Shown one piece after another: positions 41,001 to 44,599 of a DNA stretch of 64,000 nucleotides. Made by a program: the position numbers and the translations under genes. The stretch's first letter is position 1. Each line of letters begins with the position of its first letter. The stretch is taken from the IMG/VR virus record IMGVR_UViG_3300035703_004050, positions 1 through 64,000 of that record; one strand, given 5' to 3'. Source of the DNA: a virus. The notes below the pieces were generated by a model, which ran no database searches, was not told the DNA's origin, and was given only the letters and a program-made list of their open reading frames with translations.

Positions 41001-41535
41001 ATGGTTACAAGATAAACAAGACGTTAATGAAAGTTCTGAATATTTAATTAGAAGAATGAGTCAAAATAAAATTAATATCGAAGCAGAAATTGATTTACTA
41101 ACATCAAACTTTGTAAGACAATTAATATTTTATAATAATGGAAACTTAGCCATAACTGATTTAATGTCTGATTTATATAACGTTAATCAAAATAATAAAA
41201 TATATCGCGATAACAGAAATGATTTGTTTATCAATTATTCAAATGAAATTACATCAGATGGATATATTTTAGGCCCATATAAAGAAATTTTAACAATAAT
41301 TACAGATAAGGAAAATATTAGGAACGATGTTTTCACAACATCTGTTTCATTTAATACAGAATCTTATTTAAAATCTATTAATATAGATTTAAAATTATTA
41401 GTAACAATTATACAAAGAGTGCTAACTGTGAGTACTTCAAAATATTTGGGTATTTCTGAAAATGATTTCAAAGAGATTTTTGGTATACAAAGTGTAAGCA
41501 AAGCTATTCTAAGAAACATAGTCAATAATTACTAA
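38029..41535 (+). CDS. Large baseplate/tail protein with a peptidase M15-like domain
   Basis: SAHPRGLAVD (SxHxxGxAxD) and GFVHAD; follows the PAAR gene; FIGDG.T..FISGVWQ repeat. Confidence 0.6.
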   Translation: MADKIPIPKPKPAAIAAARQQALSGAIGNVTGGANTLTNPPGGTPNSGCSPATPTGEAPPAGENAVQGPTTNAPGGLSGPLGGVSPSVQNMVRNSIPAGCRAQVTPNGGARPRGVGGSAHPRGLAVDTNLFCGGKQQFRGSPQMNQYISNLHKNGARGLSYYNSGFVHADLMGNRTRRWGSNQGYVNALAAGQDPGPGAAQAAQEGGYGGGGDPCGGGGSGGCQPVQSSAPQIASGLSQNLGMDVPSMVQGLAGSLLGGSPLAAAMSQVTGAIQSALGAAGGLSGLLGALPLSPAALSDPAGAISKAITDKVAGMGANILPSIVGNVPAGLQQFSGIAQGQISDKITSTANQIFSKSSPPQLDKFISIFNAANGAQGFSSALQETVGNTLNNVFGNAGELFQNPQKNNWALRSSIPTEENEFIQLNGPFIGEVSDAVAQTVVRSQFIGDPKTVLSNLIGRSTLNAFSSMFYDWDAYVTRGYGTITNNVIQLGTDFKSLGKLADLNDILRIGTPGQISQQIILNGGGAATGLLNFMVESGLSFFDLSSVENDPKAAEFLKSVADPELIDYVKQILEMDSNLNLSTLEDLLDTKKILPLSYEYNYFENLNDIAVFLSMCNGAGQVTTLRALGELLESFEVLFDSSSLTGDPAVYNYEQLTEFSSQYAPVSYFSTDGTLTIADFIGTAAGYIHETTVPRIAEIQNELYQDTEYFDDYLELLELLRDAANGNYKVLGTPPAPNTVVIPSTAGYGFGTYLTLDDAMSDIVDAIEEELAFILETIQEDENDEVLELIRELDSLHTESAMQLAKEHKLRKEYGFPLGPSKNTDEFIGDGVTRVLPLTQDIDTEDEINIFISGVWQSPSKYTVNATANTVTLVTAPAQGRLVSVNYKTGAFNGTANKMQVWEFASSLENYALETGYGKSADFLRRVVTNDEYGQRINATLMNARNKARSEAVGLNCPNFETVNGASPTYINYVNWTGVWTSNATRAAEIWLQDKQDVNESSEYLIRRMSQNKINIEAEIDLLTSNFVRQLIFYNNGNLAITDLMSDLYNVNQNNKIYRDNRNDLFINYSNEITSDGYILGPYKEILTIITDKENIRNDVFTTSVSFNTESYLKSINIDLKLLVTIIQRVLTVSTSKYLGISENDFKEIFGIQSVSKAILRNIVNNY

Positions 41536-41576
41536 AAACGAATTGACAATAAATTGAAATAAAGTATAATACGTTT

Positions 41577-41876
41577 ATGGAACAAAACTTTTATTATGAT
41601 TTCTCAGATTGGAACCAAAAGCGTAGTATGCTTTGGAAGTCAATTCAATTACGCGGTGATGGGATAGTTATGATGGAATCATGGAGAGACCACAATACTC
41701 TCTACAAATTGATGACTAATGCTGATCAATATGCAATGCACATCCAACGTGAAGAAACCAATTGTCGTAGACTTAGGAAGCAAACAACACGGCATCGTAA
41801 GTTAATCAAAACTTTTGAAGAGACTTTCCAAACATTAGAAACTATGGCTATTATGTATAGGTTGACCTACGCATAA
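41577..41876 (+). CDS. Hypothetical protein
   Basis: TTGACA-N17-TATAAT upstream. Confidence 0.65.
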   Translation: MEQNFYYDFSDWNQKRSMLWKSIQLRGDGIVMMESWRDHNTLYKLMTNADQYAMHIQREETNCRRLRKQTTRHRKLIKTFEETFQTLETMAIMYRLTYA

Positions 41877-41886
41877 ATATGTCGAT

Positions 41887-42069
41887 ATGGAAACACATAA
41901 GAGAAGTATAGTTAAATCAATCACATGGCGTGTAATTGCAACTTTAATCGCAGCATATTGGGTAGGGTTTGAAATAGCAATTCTAATGAACATTGTTCAA
42001 ACAATTGCTTATTACATACATGAAAGACTTTGGGTACACATTAATTGGGGACGCCAAACTAATAATTGA
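41887..42069 (+). CDS. DUF2061-like small membrane protein
   Basis: ETHKRSIVKSITWR...YYIHERLW..I.WG. Confidence 0.75.
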   Translation: METHKRSIVKSITWRVIATLIAAYWVGFEIAILMNIVQTIAYYIHERLWVHINWGRQTNN

Positions 42070-42094
42070 CCTAAAGATGCTTATCGCGTATAAG
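42066..42094 (+). promoter_or_regulatory. Sigma70-type promoter of the tmRNA precursor
   Basis: TTGACC-N17-TATAAG. Confidence 0.65.
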
Positions 42095-42100
42095 TATATT

Positions 42101-42164
42101 TGTAAGCGTTGATAGTGCTTTAAAAACATTTGGGACCGGGGGGCAGTACCCCGCGCCTCCACCA
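42101..42164 (+). ncRNA. ssrA: Permuted tmRNA, acceptor piece (T-arm plus 3' acceptor strand and ACCA)
   Basis: CGGGG-GGCAGTA-CCCCG T-arm, then CGCCTCC-A-CCA; 5' end estimated from the promoter. Confidence 0.9.
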
Positions 42165-42176
42165 TAAGGAAATGGT

Positions 42177-42533
42177 ATGCGTATAAGTGAAATGACATTA
42201 GATGTACCAAACATTTTGTATCATGCCACTTATCGTCCATTGCTTAGTTCAATTAAAAAGAACGGACTAGGTGGGACAGGTAGTGAAGTTAAACGATGGG
42301 ATGATAGTATCCATGGAATCGTTTATCTTGCATTAGATCCAGATGTCGCTGAAAGTTATGCAGAAACAAGTGAAAATGTTCCTGATGAATGGCTAGATGA
42401 AATCGTAGTGTTAAAAATTGATACTACACAATTAGATAAATCTAAGTTTCGTTTAGATAAAAACGTTCAAGATAACACAGGTGACACATTGGAATATAAT
42501 GGAGTAATACCTATCTCAGCAATTTCCTTATGA
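42177..42533 (+). CDS. Tpt1/KptA-like NAD+-binding (ADP-ribosyltransferase fold) protein inside the tmRNA intervening segment
   Basis: P..LYHAT...SIKKNGL...VYLA.D...A..YA...VVLKID...E....IP...I; SD AAGGA. Confidence 0.65.
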   Translation: MRISEMTLDVPNILYHATYRPLLSSIKKNGLGGTGSEVKRWDDSIHGIVYLALDPDVAESYAETSENVPDEWLDEIVVLKIDTTQLDKSKFRLDKNVQDNTGDTLEYNGVIPISAISL

Positions 42534-42534
42534 T

Positions 42535-42740
42535 GGGGGCGAACTAGGCTCGACCTGTGTATAATAAGGGCAAGGGAGTTTACAGTGAGGCGACTGACTT
42601 TTACAGCGCAATATAATAAATGCAAACGATAACTTCGTTCGTAACGAGCAAATTGCTCAGTCTATCGTAGTTCGCGACCGCGACCTCGTAGCAGCATAAG
42701 CTCAACGGGCCGTTGGGAGCCTTGGAACAGAATCCCAACA
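42535..42740 (+). ncRNA. ssrA: Permuted tmRNA, coding piece; tag ANDNFVRNEQIAQSIVVRDRDLVAA (42622-42699)
   Basis: GGGGGCG pairs with CGCCTCC giving G3-U70; GAACTAGGCTCGAC; ANDNF...AA tag; GGAACAGAA-containing hairpin; 3' end approximate. Confidence 0.92.
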
Positions 42741-42770
42741 TTTGACACAGACACACAGAAAGGAAAAACT

Positions 42771-42995
42771 ATGTCATTAAATCCATATGAGATTCGTCTC
42801 GAACTTCTAAAACTAGCACAAACAACTCTAAATGAAAAGGCCTACAATTCTCGTCAAGCATTGATGGATCAATATCAGTACGAACGTGAAAATAGTCCAA
42901 ATACTGCTTTTCCAAAGCTTCCAACAATGCCTACTTCTGAGGAAATCATTGCTGAAGCCAAAAAACTTAATGACTTTGTAAGCAATAGTCAGTAA
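42771..42995 (+). CDS. Small phage protein
   Basis: PYEIRLELLKLA...PTSEEII..AKKLNDFVS; SD AAGGA. Confidence 0.8.
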   Translation: MSLNPYEIRLELLKLAQTTLNEKAYNSRQALMDQYQYERENSPNTAFPKLPTMPTSEEIIAEAKKLNDFVSNSQ

Positions 42996-43110
42996 TGTAA
43001 AGTGGTAGGCACATACCGTAAAGTTGTGTCGTGAACGATGGATCGGTCACACGAAAGAGGACGCTGGATTGCGTAACCAGCACATAACATTTATAAATGG
43101 AGTATGAATA

Positions 43111-43596
43111 TTGAAGAACTATATTAAGTCTGCAATTGCAGCACTAGCACTTGTTGGCATGACCACTACGAGCATGGCAACGGATTCAAATTCAGACAGC
43201 GCAGGGTTTAAGGTTGGTACACTTACATGCCACTTTGACACTAGCGTTGGTTGGGTAATTGGTTCCGTTAAGGAAGCTGATTGTCTTTACAAGGGACTAA
43301 ACGGCGAAGAGCAGCTTTATACTGCTGAACTTGGTCGCCTTGGTGTGGACATTGGTGTAACTGGCGCACAGACAGTTGTTTGGGCAGTTATTGCTCCAGG
43401 TAAGGCACAACCAGAAAGCCTTGAAGGTACTTATGTTGGTGCTAGCGCAGAAGCAACTGCTATTGTTGGGCTAACTGCTAATGCACTGCTTGGTGGTTTT
43501 AAGAAGAGCATTGCACTACAACCAGTAAGCATTGGTTCACAAACTGGACTAAACGTTGCACTTGGTGTTGGTTCACTACGACTAACAGCACAATAA
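43111..43596 (+). CDS. DUF992-like secreted protein
   Basis: Signal peptide; VGTLTC, GWVIGS, GVDIG, L.G.Y.GASAEAT and LQPVS..Q.GLNVA.G. Confidence 0.8.
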   Translation: MKNYIKSAIAALALVGMTTTSMATDSNSDSAGFKVGTLTCHFDTSVGWVIGSVKEADCLYKGLNGEEQLYTAELGRLGVDIGVTGAQTVVWAVIAPGKAQPESLEGTYVGASAEATAIVGLTANALLGGFKKSIALQPVSIGSQTGLNVALGVGSLRLTAQ

Positions 43597-43599
43597 AAT

Positions 43600-43633
43600 A
43601 AATAGGGCTCGTTCTTTAGAGCCCTATTTTTTT
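43600..43633 (+). terminator. Intrinsic terminator (possibly bidirectional)
   Basis: AAATAGGGCTC-N8-GAGCCCTATTT plus a T-run. Confidence 0.85.
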
Positions 43634-43683: not shown

Positions 43684-43911
43684 ATGCTAGACAAAAATCA
43701 AATGGAACGTTGGCAAAAAGTTAATGCATTTCTTGAACAAGCACTTGATCAAGTTCAAAATGACAAAACTAAAAGCCGCAAAATCAAAAACATTCGTTCA
43801 AAGCTAGCATGGGCTTTGGACCAATACGAAAGTGGTCTTTCAGGTAAAACTGAATTACTACAAAAGCTAACACCTGAAGTAGCAGAAAAGTTTCAAGAAA
43901 TTTTAGGATGA
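43684..43911 (+). CDS. Hypothetical protein
   Basis: SD AGGAG; coupled to tilS. Confidence 0.7.
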   Translation: MLDKNQMERWQKVNAFLEQALDQVQNDKTKSRKIKNIRSKLAWALDQYESGLSGKTELLQKLTPEVAEKFQEILG

Positions 43912-44513
43912 TTAAACTCCTTACATCATTGCCAAAAACACTATACGTCGCTTGTAGCGGCGGTGTAGATTCTATGGCTGCGTTGGACTTTTTGTCACGC
44001 AAACATGATGTAACCGCTGCATACTTTGATCATTATACAGCACATGGCATGGAAGCAAAACACTGGTTGTGGCGTTATTGCCAAAACAAAAACATTCCTT
44101 TTGTTCACAGTGAATTATCTAGATCAAAATTGTCAGGTGAAAGTATTGAAGAGTTTTGGCGTAATCAACGTTATGATTGGTTTGATACACTTCCAGGCAC
44201 TGTCGTTACTGCACATCACTTGGATGATGCTGTTGAAACTTGGGTATGGGCTAGTATGCACGGTCAACCAAAGTTGCCAGAAATTTATCGTAACAATGTA
44301 ATCCGTCCATTCTTAGCAACACCAAAACAAGAATTAATGGATTGGTGCATTAAGAATAACGTACCATGGTTTGATGATACATCAAACACGGATACTAAAT
44401 ATATGCGTAACTATGTTCGACATGTTGCGATGCCTGTTGTCCAAAAGATTAATCCAGGTATCCAAAAGACTATCAAAAAGAAATTGCTTTCTAAATTAGA
44501 TAGTGTATATTAA
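43908..44513 (+). CDS. tilS: tRNA(Ile)-lysidine synthetase, catalytic domain only
   Basis: PP-loop SGGVDS, RNQRY, TAHHLDD.VET, IRPFL and D.SN....Y.RNYVRH. Confidence 0.9.
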   Translation: MIKLLTSLPKTLYVACSGGVDSMAALDFLSRKHDVTAAYFDHYTAHGMEAKHWLWRYCQNKNIPFVHSELSRSKLSGESIEEFWRNQRYDWFDTLPGTVVTAHHLDDAVETWVWASMHGQPKLPEIYRNNVIRPFLATPKQELMDWCIKNNVPWFDDTSNTDTKYMRNYVRHVAMPVVQKINPGIQKTIKKKLLSKLDSVY

Positions 44514-44522
44514 GTGGACAAT

Positions 44523-44599
44523 GCGCTGGTAGCTCAATTGGTCAGAGCAGCGGACTCATAATCCGTTGGTTGGGGGTTCGAGTCCCTCCCGGCGCACCA
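44523..44599 (+). tRNA. tRNA with CAT anticodon, most likely tRNA-Ile2
   Basis: Acceptor GCGCTGG/CCGGCGC, anticodon arm GCGGA-CTCATAA-TCCGT, TTCGAGT T-loop, encoded CCA; 9 nt after tilS. Confidence 0.9.

Follow-up and report, generated by a model that had tools for sequence, protein, structure and literature searches.

Textbooks present the two-piece transfer-messenger RNA (tmRNA) gene as a curiosity, and the intervening segment (IVS) between its two pieces has been treated as a disposable spacer. Such tmRNAs have already been described in marine and aquatic phages, among them Melnitz and the pelagimyophages, in the text of PMC9004378. A 2025 paper on a tmRNA database notes, in its main text, one IVS that contains a tRNA-Ala gene, a feature described there as unique, and adds that the longest IVS holds a repetitive element; the term 'ORF' (open reading frame) does not occur in that main text (PMC11915505). 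We found no account of a protein-coding gene within a tmRNA IVS in the literature searched, namely the texts of freely accessible papers. Here, we describe a two-piece tmRNA gene in a 64,000-nucleotide (nt) stretch of viral DNA, positions 1 to 64,000 of IMG/VR record IMGVR_UViG_3300035703_004050 (hereafter the window, whose numbering is used throughout). It shares with the alphaproteobacterial and marine-phage genes the order of acceptor piece, IVS and coding piece, the G3.U70 pair and a tag that starts ANDNF. Unlike the known genes, its IVS is 370 nt long and encodes a conserved protein, a 118-residue ORF with a predicted ADP-ribosyltransferase (ART) fold. The best explanation overall, to which we assign a probability of roughly 0.7, is an intact alpha-type permuted phage tmRNA gene whose IVS a small gene cassette has come to occupy.

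Is there a precedent for such an arrangement? Mitochondrial polycistronic transcripts are punctuated by tRNAs, and in the window, likewise, a tRNA-like 3' end precedes the mRNA and an RNase P site follows it. The window differs in belonging to a bacterial virus and in forming a single tRNA-like domain from both flanks, and its processing is a proposed one. The IVS of Coxiella burnetii 23S rRNA is excised by RNase III. That IVS carries the gene for S23p (PMC4990558), so that both loci place a protein ORF inside a segment excised, or in the window expected to be excised, from a stable RNA precursor, rRNA there and tmRNA here. PMC4990558 suggests that S23p is not made, whereas purifying selection acts on the window ORF, which also has a Shine-Dalgarno sequence. 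Homing endonuclease genes in group I introns, reported from tmRNA genes in the main text of PMC11915505, are likewise protein genes housed in a portion of a tmRNA gene that can be removed, and a homing endonuclease is among the IVS cargoes described below (locus L365). Those introns self-splice in the T-loop, whereas the window has no intron or ribozyme, and its IVS would be cut out at the open end of the acceptor stem by the kind of end processing that tRNAs undergo.

Two Rfam models recognize the window gene above their gathering thresholds. The tmRNA_permuted model (RF04321) matches 42102-42699 at 101.6 bits against a cut-off of 47 (E 1.2e-18), and alpha_tmRNA (RF01849) matches 42068-42742 at 73 bits against 50; in both alignments the entire ORF is looped out as a single insertion. 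The acceptor stem pairs GGGGGCG (42535-42541) with CGCCTCC (42154-42160), and G3 lies opposite T, giving G3.U70. The tRNA-Ala-like features are all present, with the 3' strand upstream of the 5' strand, the T-arm and an encoded CCA, and so are those of the tag frame: an alanine resume codon, hydrophobic residues and AA at the end, and a stop. The tag is long, with 25 encoded residues where alphaproteobacterial tags have about 13. The permuted alpha-type gene proposed in the initial annotation is thus borne out by both models, and the positions given there for the ACCA end (42164), the 5' end (42535) and the ORF, with the 370-nt length of the IVS, all hold in the sequence. The two tmRNA finders named there gave different answers, the alpha_tmRNA model recovering the gene while ARAGORN, which does call permuted tmRNAs with an IVS of about 205 nt, made no call; phage tmRNA genes with a long IVS are therefore probably under-annotated. 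A search of the window's own record with RF04321 returned only a partial match of 45 bits, its first pass not bridging the long insertion, and the alpha_tmRNA alignment has gaps in helix 2. The window gene is an intact, circularly permuted tmRNA gene of the alpha type, whose precursor is expected to lose the IVS and mature into two RNAs held together by base pairing.

The ORF fits this IVS to the nucleotide. It starts 12 nt past the encoded CCA end, its Shine-Dalgarno sequence AAGGA lies 2 nt past that end, and its TGA stop ends 1 nt ahead of G42535. The Shine-Dalgarno sequence is part of a 9-bp helix closing the IVS, whose 5' strand, TAAGGAAAT, is a perfect complement of ATTTCCTTA near the other end (Table 1). 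The minimum-free-energy fold of 42102-42580 includes the acceptor stem and this closing helix (z -4.9). The helix is general: 82 of 85 IVSs of at least 40 nt have one of at least 6 bp (median 10) between the IVS start and the bases just before a terminal TGAT, against 24% of mismatched controls. What does such a helix do to the protein? The 3' strand reads GTT TCC TTA TGA, and this is why unrelated cargo ORFs end in VSL and a stop, as they do in 10 of the 32 distinct IVSs of the second scan described below. An RNA helix thus imposes a C-terminal (V/I)SL on unrelated proteins, a case of RNA structure constraining protein sequence. The shared helix ends also point to a cassette in which the 5' and 3' modules stay constant and the middle varies.

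The 118-residue ORF is a real gene under purifying selection. Dinucleotide shuffles of the IVS never yielded an ORF of the real length (0 of 1000; mean 108 nt against 357). Near-length homologs numbered 82 in a database clustered at 90%, none with a Pfam domain on record, and a profile search of 1.84 billion representatives gave 1221 proteins at E <= 1e-3, many of them 200-1662 residues long with the domain inside. The nearest homologs, P0001, P0002 and P0003, are 96%, 89% and 81% identical, the last encoded on a 357-kb contig. Across three nested copies of the ORF, the ratio of nonsynonymous to synonymous polymorphism (pN/pS) is 0.19-0.30. A 544-nt contig from another metagenome (X5 record 16) spans 42101-42585 with 21 differences, and third codon positions account for 10 of the 15 differences listed within the ORF.

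Nesting of the ART gene recurs at two loci beyond the window. Among 65 viral loci with a homolog scanned by Rfam, a tmRNA surrounds the ORF only in L004, on a 249.6-kb contig (tmRNA_permuted at 78.8 bits; ORF 65% identical to that of the window), and among nine metagenome loci only in L189 (tmRNA at 122.7 bits; ORF 68% identical). All three share the junctions ACCA-TAAGGAAAT, 2-3 nt, ATG on one side and stop, T, GGG on the other, and both L004 and L189 keep the closing helix, with G.U for G-C at some positions. Their tmRNA flanks are mutually 46-64% identical, and neither synteny nor similarity among the neighboring genes was detected by tblastx at E <= 1e-5. On a tree of 72 ORF rows, from which tblastn matches covering fewer than 86 query residues were left out, the nested label requires at least two changes, forced by well-supported branches. 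Among the metagenome loci, the ORFs nearest to that of the window are L187 (72%) and L188 (71%), yet both are free-standing. Their genes (L187:1002-1361 and L188:1501-1860) end in ATTTCTTAT-TGA, a near copy of the 3' module of the closing helix, which suggests an origin in a nested cassette. An (I/V)SL C-terminus occurs in 13 of the 82 homologs, mostly with the MRIxE start of the nested copies, and we predict from these ends that such homologs, P0001, P0003, P0007, P0009, P0010, P0012, P0015 and P0016 among them, are nested too. A loose end in X5 record 18, following ACCATAAGGAA, was considered as a further ART variant and rejected; it matches instead the start (MRITEIA) of an unrelated 123-residue cargo found in L410.

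Does the slot hold other genes? In a 16.2-kb contig (X2 record 2), 42089-42164 and 42563-42900 are matched, the latter with one difference, and 118 other letters replace the 398 skipped. The IVS is replaced by 73 and 67 letters in X3 and X5 contigs, and X3 record 13 has the acceptor piece with one difference, then a different IVS. We scanned for alpha-type acceptor ends by pattern and obtained at least 120 viral loci, with the IVS resolved in 117 among the matches listed. These IVSs measure 4-266 nt (median 77), so that the 370 nt of the window exceeds them all. Nine contigs have an acceptor piece of the L004 type, eight of them at 94-100% identity and one at 83%; their IVSs of 62-232 nt are unrelated in content, and that of L004 itself is 373 nt. 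Among the matches listed, 15 IVSs reach at least 140 nt. Seven of these 15 are filled by an unrelated ORF at p <= 0.004 (from 1000 dinucleotide shuffles), and an eighth reaches p 0.031. With the window and L004 added (n = 17), nine are at least 86% ORF-filled at p <= 0.004, one stands at p 0.031 and seven have no such ORF. One cargo is Pfam DUF6356 (E 4e-11). Three further cargo families were followed across viral loci: the L144 family at 37 loci, nested only in the query's own contig; the 62-residue L131 family at 80 loci, 16 of them nested; and the L132 family at seven, three of them nested and near-identical. Chance as the source of these ORF-like frames is rejected for the IVSs at p <= 0.004 and for the three families. 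Different small genes occupy the same spot in related phages, which gives the spacer the look of a reusable cargo slot, as the initial annotation had suggested.

A second scan, keyed to a 16-base junction, returned 98 stretches. In 45 of them the T-arm is complete and a 5' piece matches, giving 32 distinct IVSs of 25-492 nt. Their cargoes comprise a homing endonuclease and about a dozen other types of ORF, for which no shuffle p values were computed. Named by content, they are a 144-residue HNH homing endonuclease (phrog_655, E 7e-13), a 123-residue ORF, several ORFs of 55-66 residues and small hydrophobic peptides; most of the small cargo ORFs have no match in Pfam or PHROGs. Rfam finds a tmRNA in all 10 second-scan loci tested, with the match in L410 not spanning the IVS, and all 17 ORF-bearing loci tested have a tmRNA match above the gathering score. 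These comparisons strongly support the IVS as a general, exchangeable cargo slot of phage two-piece tmRNA genes, with the ART as one cargo among many.

Several loci in these scans are worth recording. The homing endonuclease gene occupies a 492-nt IVS at L365:5652-6401 on the minus strand, two further loci have the same IVS, and it is possible that this enzyme drives cassette mobility. The cargo-bearing genes of L334 and L349 score as beta-type (RF01850, 167 and 144 bits) and share with alpha-type genes the junction TCCACCA-TAAGGAAAT. Five loci (L328, L335, L360, L367 and L395; IVS 174 nt) hold a conserved ORF, MK[SL]EKVKQYFVVVDKDD..., that has no stop within the IVS and continues past the predicted RNase P site into the 5' end of the tmRNA; processing would thus yield a non-stop mRNA. 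Short overrun frames ending in FMMG or FLYDG were rejected as cargoes, being other-frame readings of the conserved IVS end. Members of the Cys-rich L131 family lie exactly between tRNA-Thr and tRNA-Leu at eight of their 80 loci (L255, L263, L266, L282, L284 and L288-L290), starting 13-20 nt past the first tRNA and ending no more than 2 nt from the second; elsewhere the family adjoins a single tRNA in nine loci and abuts a tmRNA gene in five.

What protein does the window cassette encode? An AlphaFold2 model built on a 30-sequence alignment (pLDDT 78, pTM 0.73) was compared with known structures. Foldseek against the PDB placed Tpt1/KptA in all of the top 19 rows (best E 2.5e-5), with other ARTs after. 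Against 48,161 chains, VIA-align ranked KptA 9ld3_A first (Z 10.7, rmsd 2.5 over 91 residues, confined to residues 86-178 of the chain), followed by two further Tpt1 chains (Z 8.2 and 7.2) and then, at Z 4-6.6, by DUF952, Arr, DarT, the pertussis, cholera and diphtheria toxins and PARPs. The remaining 49 rows are presumably mostly ART-type proteins (toxins, DarT, Arr and PARPs), judged by the titles we recognized rather than row by row. An Atlas search leads toward PARP and Arr clusters. A profile of the family against PDB sequences found Tpt1 at E 0.0025-0.014 over residues 8-38, with the LYH(A/G)T...GL motif aligned (E 0.0025). PF01885, the Pfam model of Tpt1/KptA, matches below cut-off in 17 of the 30 family members and above it (31.2 bits against 26) in the fused homolog P0083. 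The ART-type fold claimed at the outset thus finds support, at the level of the fold.

Family membership is another matter. Tpt1 pairs an RNA lobe at its N-terminus with a C-terminal NAD+ lobe and uses the tetrad Arg16-His17-Arg64-Arg119, as described in the text of PMC8464070. The window protein resembles it in the fold of the C-lobe and in the LYH(A/G)T...GL motif. It has no N-terminal winged-helix RNA lobe, which provides the Arg, His and Arg of the tetrad, and so three of the four tetrad residues (PMC8464070) are missing. Being a C-lobe only, it is not a member of the Tpt1 family; the NAD+-binding domain read from its motif pattern in the initial annotation stands at the level of the fold. 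H16 is invariant in the 30-sequence alignment and Y50 and E106 are nearly so, and the three fall in model strands 13-19, 48-52 and 104-108 (strands 1, 2 and 5), which suggests an H-Y-E-type transferase. In Tpt1, the second and third motif positions are H and a hydrophobic residue, whereas in the window protein they appear to be Y and E. At the fold level, the model supports a minimal NAD+-binding ART domain, nearest to the Tpt1/KptA C-lobe, and ADP-ribosylation of a host protein or nucleic acid is the most likely activity predicted from it.

ART domains also occur in phage polyvalent proteins. Members of the same domain family as the window protein are likewise found inside proteins of 200-1662 residues, one of which has a ParB_N domain, whereas in the window the domain stands alone at 118 residues. 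PF18760 (ART-PolyVal) matched three of the 30 members, with a best E of 0.029, far below significance. A narrow peptide-pattern scan of genome contigs gave one full-length match, in a metagenome-assembled genome, and three short partial matches, which is weak evidence that the family may be restricted to phages. With 1221 representatives, this is a large family of ART domains that has no Pfam model of its own.

How might a gene in such a position be expressed? The sigma-70 promoter reported upstream of the acceptor piece is borne out in part: it is visible in the sequence (Table 1), but the promoter scan does not list it because the scan requires a T at the last -10 base. The scan does list equivalent sites in L004 (TTGTAA-17-TATAAT) and L189 (TTGACA-17-TATACT), in each case just upstream of the acceptor piece, and no plus-strand promoter-like site within either IVS. 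We infer that a single promoter drives the whole unit, by which the acceptor piece, the 118-residue ORF and the coding piece would be transcribed in that order. The closing helix would extend the acceptor stem and pair the Shine-Dalgarno region with the last three codons of the ORF. Ribosomes could then load only on the nascent transcript, before the 3' strand of the helix is made, or with the helix opened; once that strand is made, the tRNA-like domain and the closing helix would fold and hide the Shine-Dalgarno sequence. RNase P and 3'-end trimming would separate the two tmRNA pieces from the IVS RNA, in which a single nucleotide would follow the stop codon.

Tentatively, and at somewhat less than even odds, we extend this scheme to a standardized gene-cassette slot in phage two-piece tmRNA genes of both alpha and beta type. 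Its 5' module would be a Shine-Dalgarno sequence inside the closing-helix strand directly after the CCA end. The 3' module would be the complementary strand, read as (V/I)-S-L, then a stop codon, one base and the RNase P site. Between them would lie unrelated cargoes (ART, homing endonuclease, DUF6356 and many small proteins), swapped between phages by recombination or homing. Under this proposal, the folded tRNA-like domain would hide the ribosome-binding site and so confine cargo translation to the nascent transcript, and tRNA-processing enzymes would release the mRNA.

Several observations weigh against the picture of a cassette in a working tmRNA gene. The ART homolog is nested at only one of 65 viral and one of nine metagenome loci, and many homologs are domains of long proteins, the homologous frame in viral loci often running on for up to 770 further codons; with few nested and many in long proteins, the function of the ART need not relate to tmRNA. 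The IVS boundaries of the surveys were set by our own pattern script, and some of the surveyed IMG/VR contigs may hold host tmRNA genes at prophage ends. The window protein scores 12.9 bits with PF01885 against a cut-off of 26 (E 0.11, residues 9-33 only), and its H16-Y50-E106 triad was placed by secondary-structure register only, without residue-level superposition. The upstream -10 element, TATAAG, is imperfect and its site goes unlisted. RNA-run contigs (X20) cover only 42562-42765 and 42786-42823, come from a related tmRNA and are silent on transcription of the ORF. Finally, the promoter-like site inside the ORF at 42472-42500 could transcribe the coding piece separately.

That last site invites the view that the two halves have no common precursor, the upstream promoter giving an mRNA of the acceptor piece and ORF, the internal one the coding piece, and the two assembling in trans. 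The site has 10 of 12 matches (ATAACA-17-TATAAT), and trans assembly is conceivable, since base pairing alone joins the mature two-piece tmRNA according to the main text of PMC11915505. The region has three promoter-like sites against a shuffle mean of 6.6, so that one match weighs little, and neither L004 nor L189 has a counterpart. The closing helix, conserved in nearly all of the longer IVSs, is sensible only with both IVS ends on one RNA, and we regard separate transcription as very unlikely. Could the insertion instead have killed the tmRNA, leaving the ORF in a dispensable phage gene with decaying flanks? An IVS longer than all 117 surveyed among the matches listed, the silence of ARAGORN and the helix 2 gaps in the alpha_tmRNA alignment would fit. 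Against this stand both Rfam scores, well over their cut-offs, and the intact acceptor stem with G3.U70, T-arm, CCA end, resume codon and full tag frame ending in AA. Nesting is moreover kept at 65-68% ORF identity in loci whose tmRNAs still score well, with G.U pairs preserving the closing helix. A dead tmRNA is the most improbable of the alternatives.

The IVS might also be a neutral safe harbor for mobile cassettes, entered by recombination or homing, in which case the ORF would neither help the phage nor be coupled to tmRNA. The homing endonuclease in L365 and its two companions suggests as much, as do the two changes of the nested label on the ORF tree, the dissimilar genes flanking the window, L004 and L189, and the turnover of IVS content between near-identical tmRNA flanks. 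The ART ORF itself makes a poor selfish element: no nuclease family appears in its Pfam or PHROGs results, it is under purifying selection, and the closing helix accommodates its start and stop exactly. We consider a purely selfish passenger unlikely, and this reading overlaps the favored one, a cassette in an intact tmRNA gene, more than it excludes it. A different objection is that the slot is more than convenient, nesting being a functional link through an ART that targets the translation or RNA machinery, such as tmRNA, tRNA ends, ribosomes or host rescue factors. The nearest fold is indeed the NAD+ lobe of an RNA-modifying enzyme, and the neighbors in the window include a TilS-like PP-loop protein and tRNA(CAT). 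With no tmRNA beside the homolog at 64 of the 65 viral loci, unrelated proteins as the other IVS cargoes, and the RNA-binding N-lobe described for Tpt1 in the text of PMC8464070 absent, we judge such a link quite unlikely.

Why does a cassette in an intact tmRNA gene matter? The phage IVS repeatedly holds intact, conserved protein genes, set between the CCA end and the RNase P site with nucleotide precision. Such genes suggest an expression unit of a new kind, in which an mRNA is embedded in the maturation of a stable RNA and probably released by it, and a hot spot for phage accessory genes, where genes in a long IVS may be under-annotated by ARAGORN-based pipelines. If the tentatively proposed standardized slot is true, release of its mRNA by tRNA-processing enzymes would be the counterpart in a bacterial virus of mitochondrial tRNA punctuation, with the dose of the effector tied to tmRNA synthesis.

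Table 1. Coordinates of the tmRNA unit and its flanking genes in the window.
Feature	Position	Strand	Basis or remark
DUF2061 membrane protein gene	41887-42069		Flanks the tmRNA unit; stop codon overlaps the -35 element
Sigma-70-like promoter of the tmRNA gene: -35 TTGACC (42066-42071), 17-nt spacer, -10 TATAAG (42089-42094)	42066-42094	+	Read from sequence
tmRNA acceptor piece: 5' part of helix 2, T-arm, 3' acceptor strand CGCCTCC, encoded ACCA	42102-42164	+	RF04321 model positions 1 to ~62
IVS, 370 nt, expected to be removed at tmRNA maturation	42165-42534	+	Single insertion in both Rfam alignments
Closing helix, 5' strand; includes the ORF Shine-Dalgarno AAGGA (42166-42170)	42165-42173	+	Perfect complement of 42522-42530; minimum-free-energy fold
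118-residue ORF, predicted ART fold (Tpt1/KptA C-lobe-like), candidate triad H16, Y50, E106	42177-42533	+	Homologs, model, pN/pS
Internal promoter-like site ATAACA-17-TATAAT in the ORF, 10/12 matches, unconserved; probably a chance match	42472-42500	+	Promoter scan
Closing helix, 3' strand; encodes the last three codons, I-S-L	42522-42530	+	Sequence; minimum-free-energy fold
tmRNA coding piece: 5' acceptor strand GGGGGCG (G3.U70), helix 2, mRNA-like region	42535-42742	+	RF04321, RF01849
Tag reading frame: resume codon GCA, 25 codons (ANDNF...LVAA), TAA stop	42622-42699	+	Sequence; tag region of both Rfam models
DUF992 protein gene	43111-43596		Other flank of the tmRNA unit; E 1.5e-44

The window is part of a large phage. 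Ten of its large ORFs were compared with PHROGs, and they include both ribonucleotide reductase subunits, a DnaB-like helicase, a primase, a second helicase, an ATP-dependent DNA ligase and a tail-spike-like protein, and the source record is 72 kb long with a CheckV completeness of 20%. A 'distant' blastn search of 41500-43600 against a phage collection gave no match. Beyond the DUF992 gene, the region 43908-44599 encodes a TilS-type PP-loop ATPase (PF01171, E 2.5e-33) that ends 9 nt before a tRNA(CAT) gene at 44523-44599; the pair may be a phage lysidine synthetase with its substrate tRNA-Ile2, rather than a tRNA-Met. Elsewhere in the survey, the 72-nt IVS of L082 contains a tRNA-like T-arm fragment, GGGTTCGATTCCCC, which recalls the tRNA gene noted in one IVS in the main text of PMC11915505.

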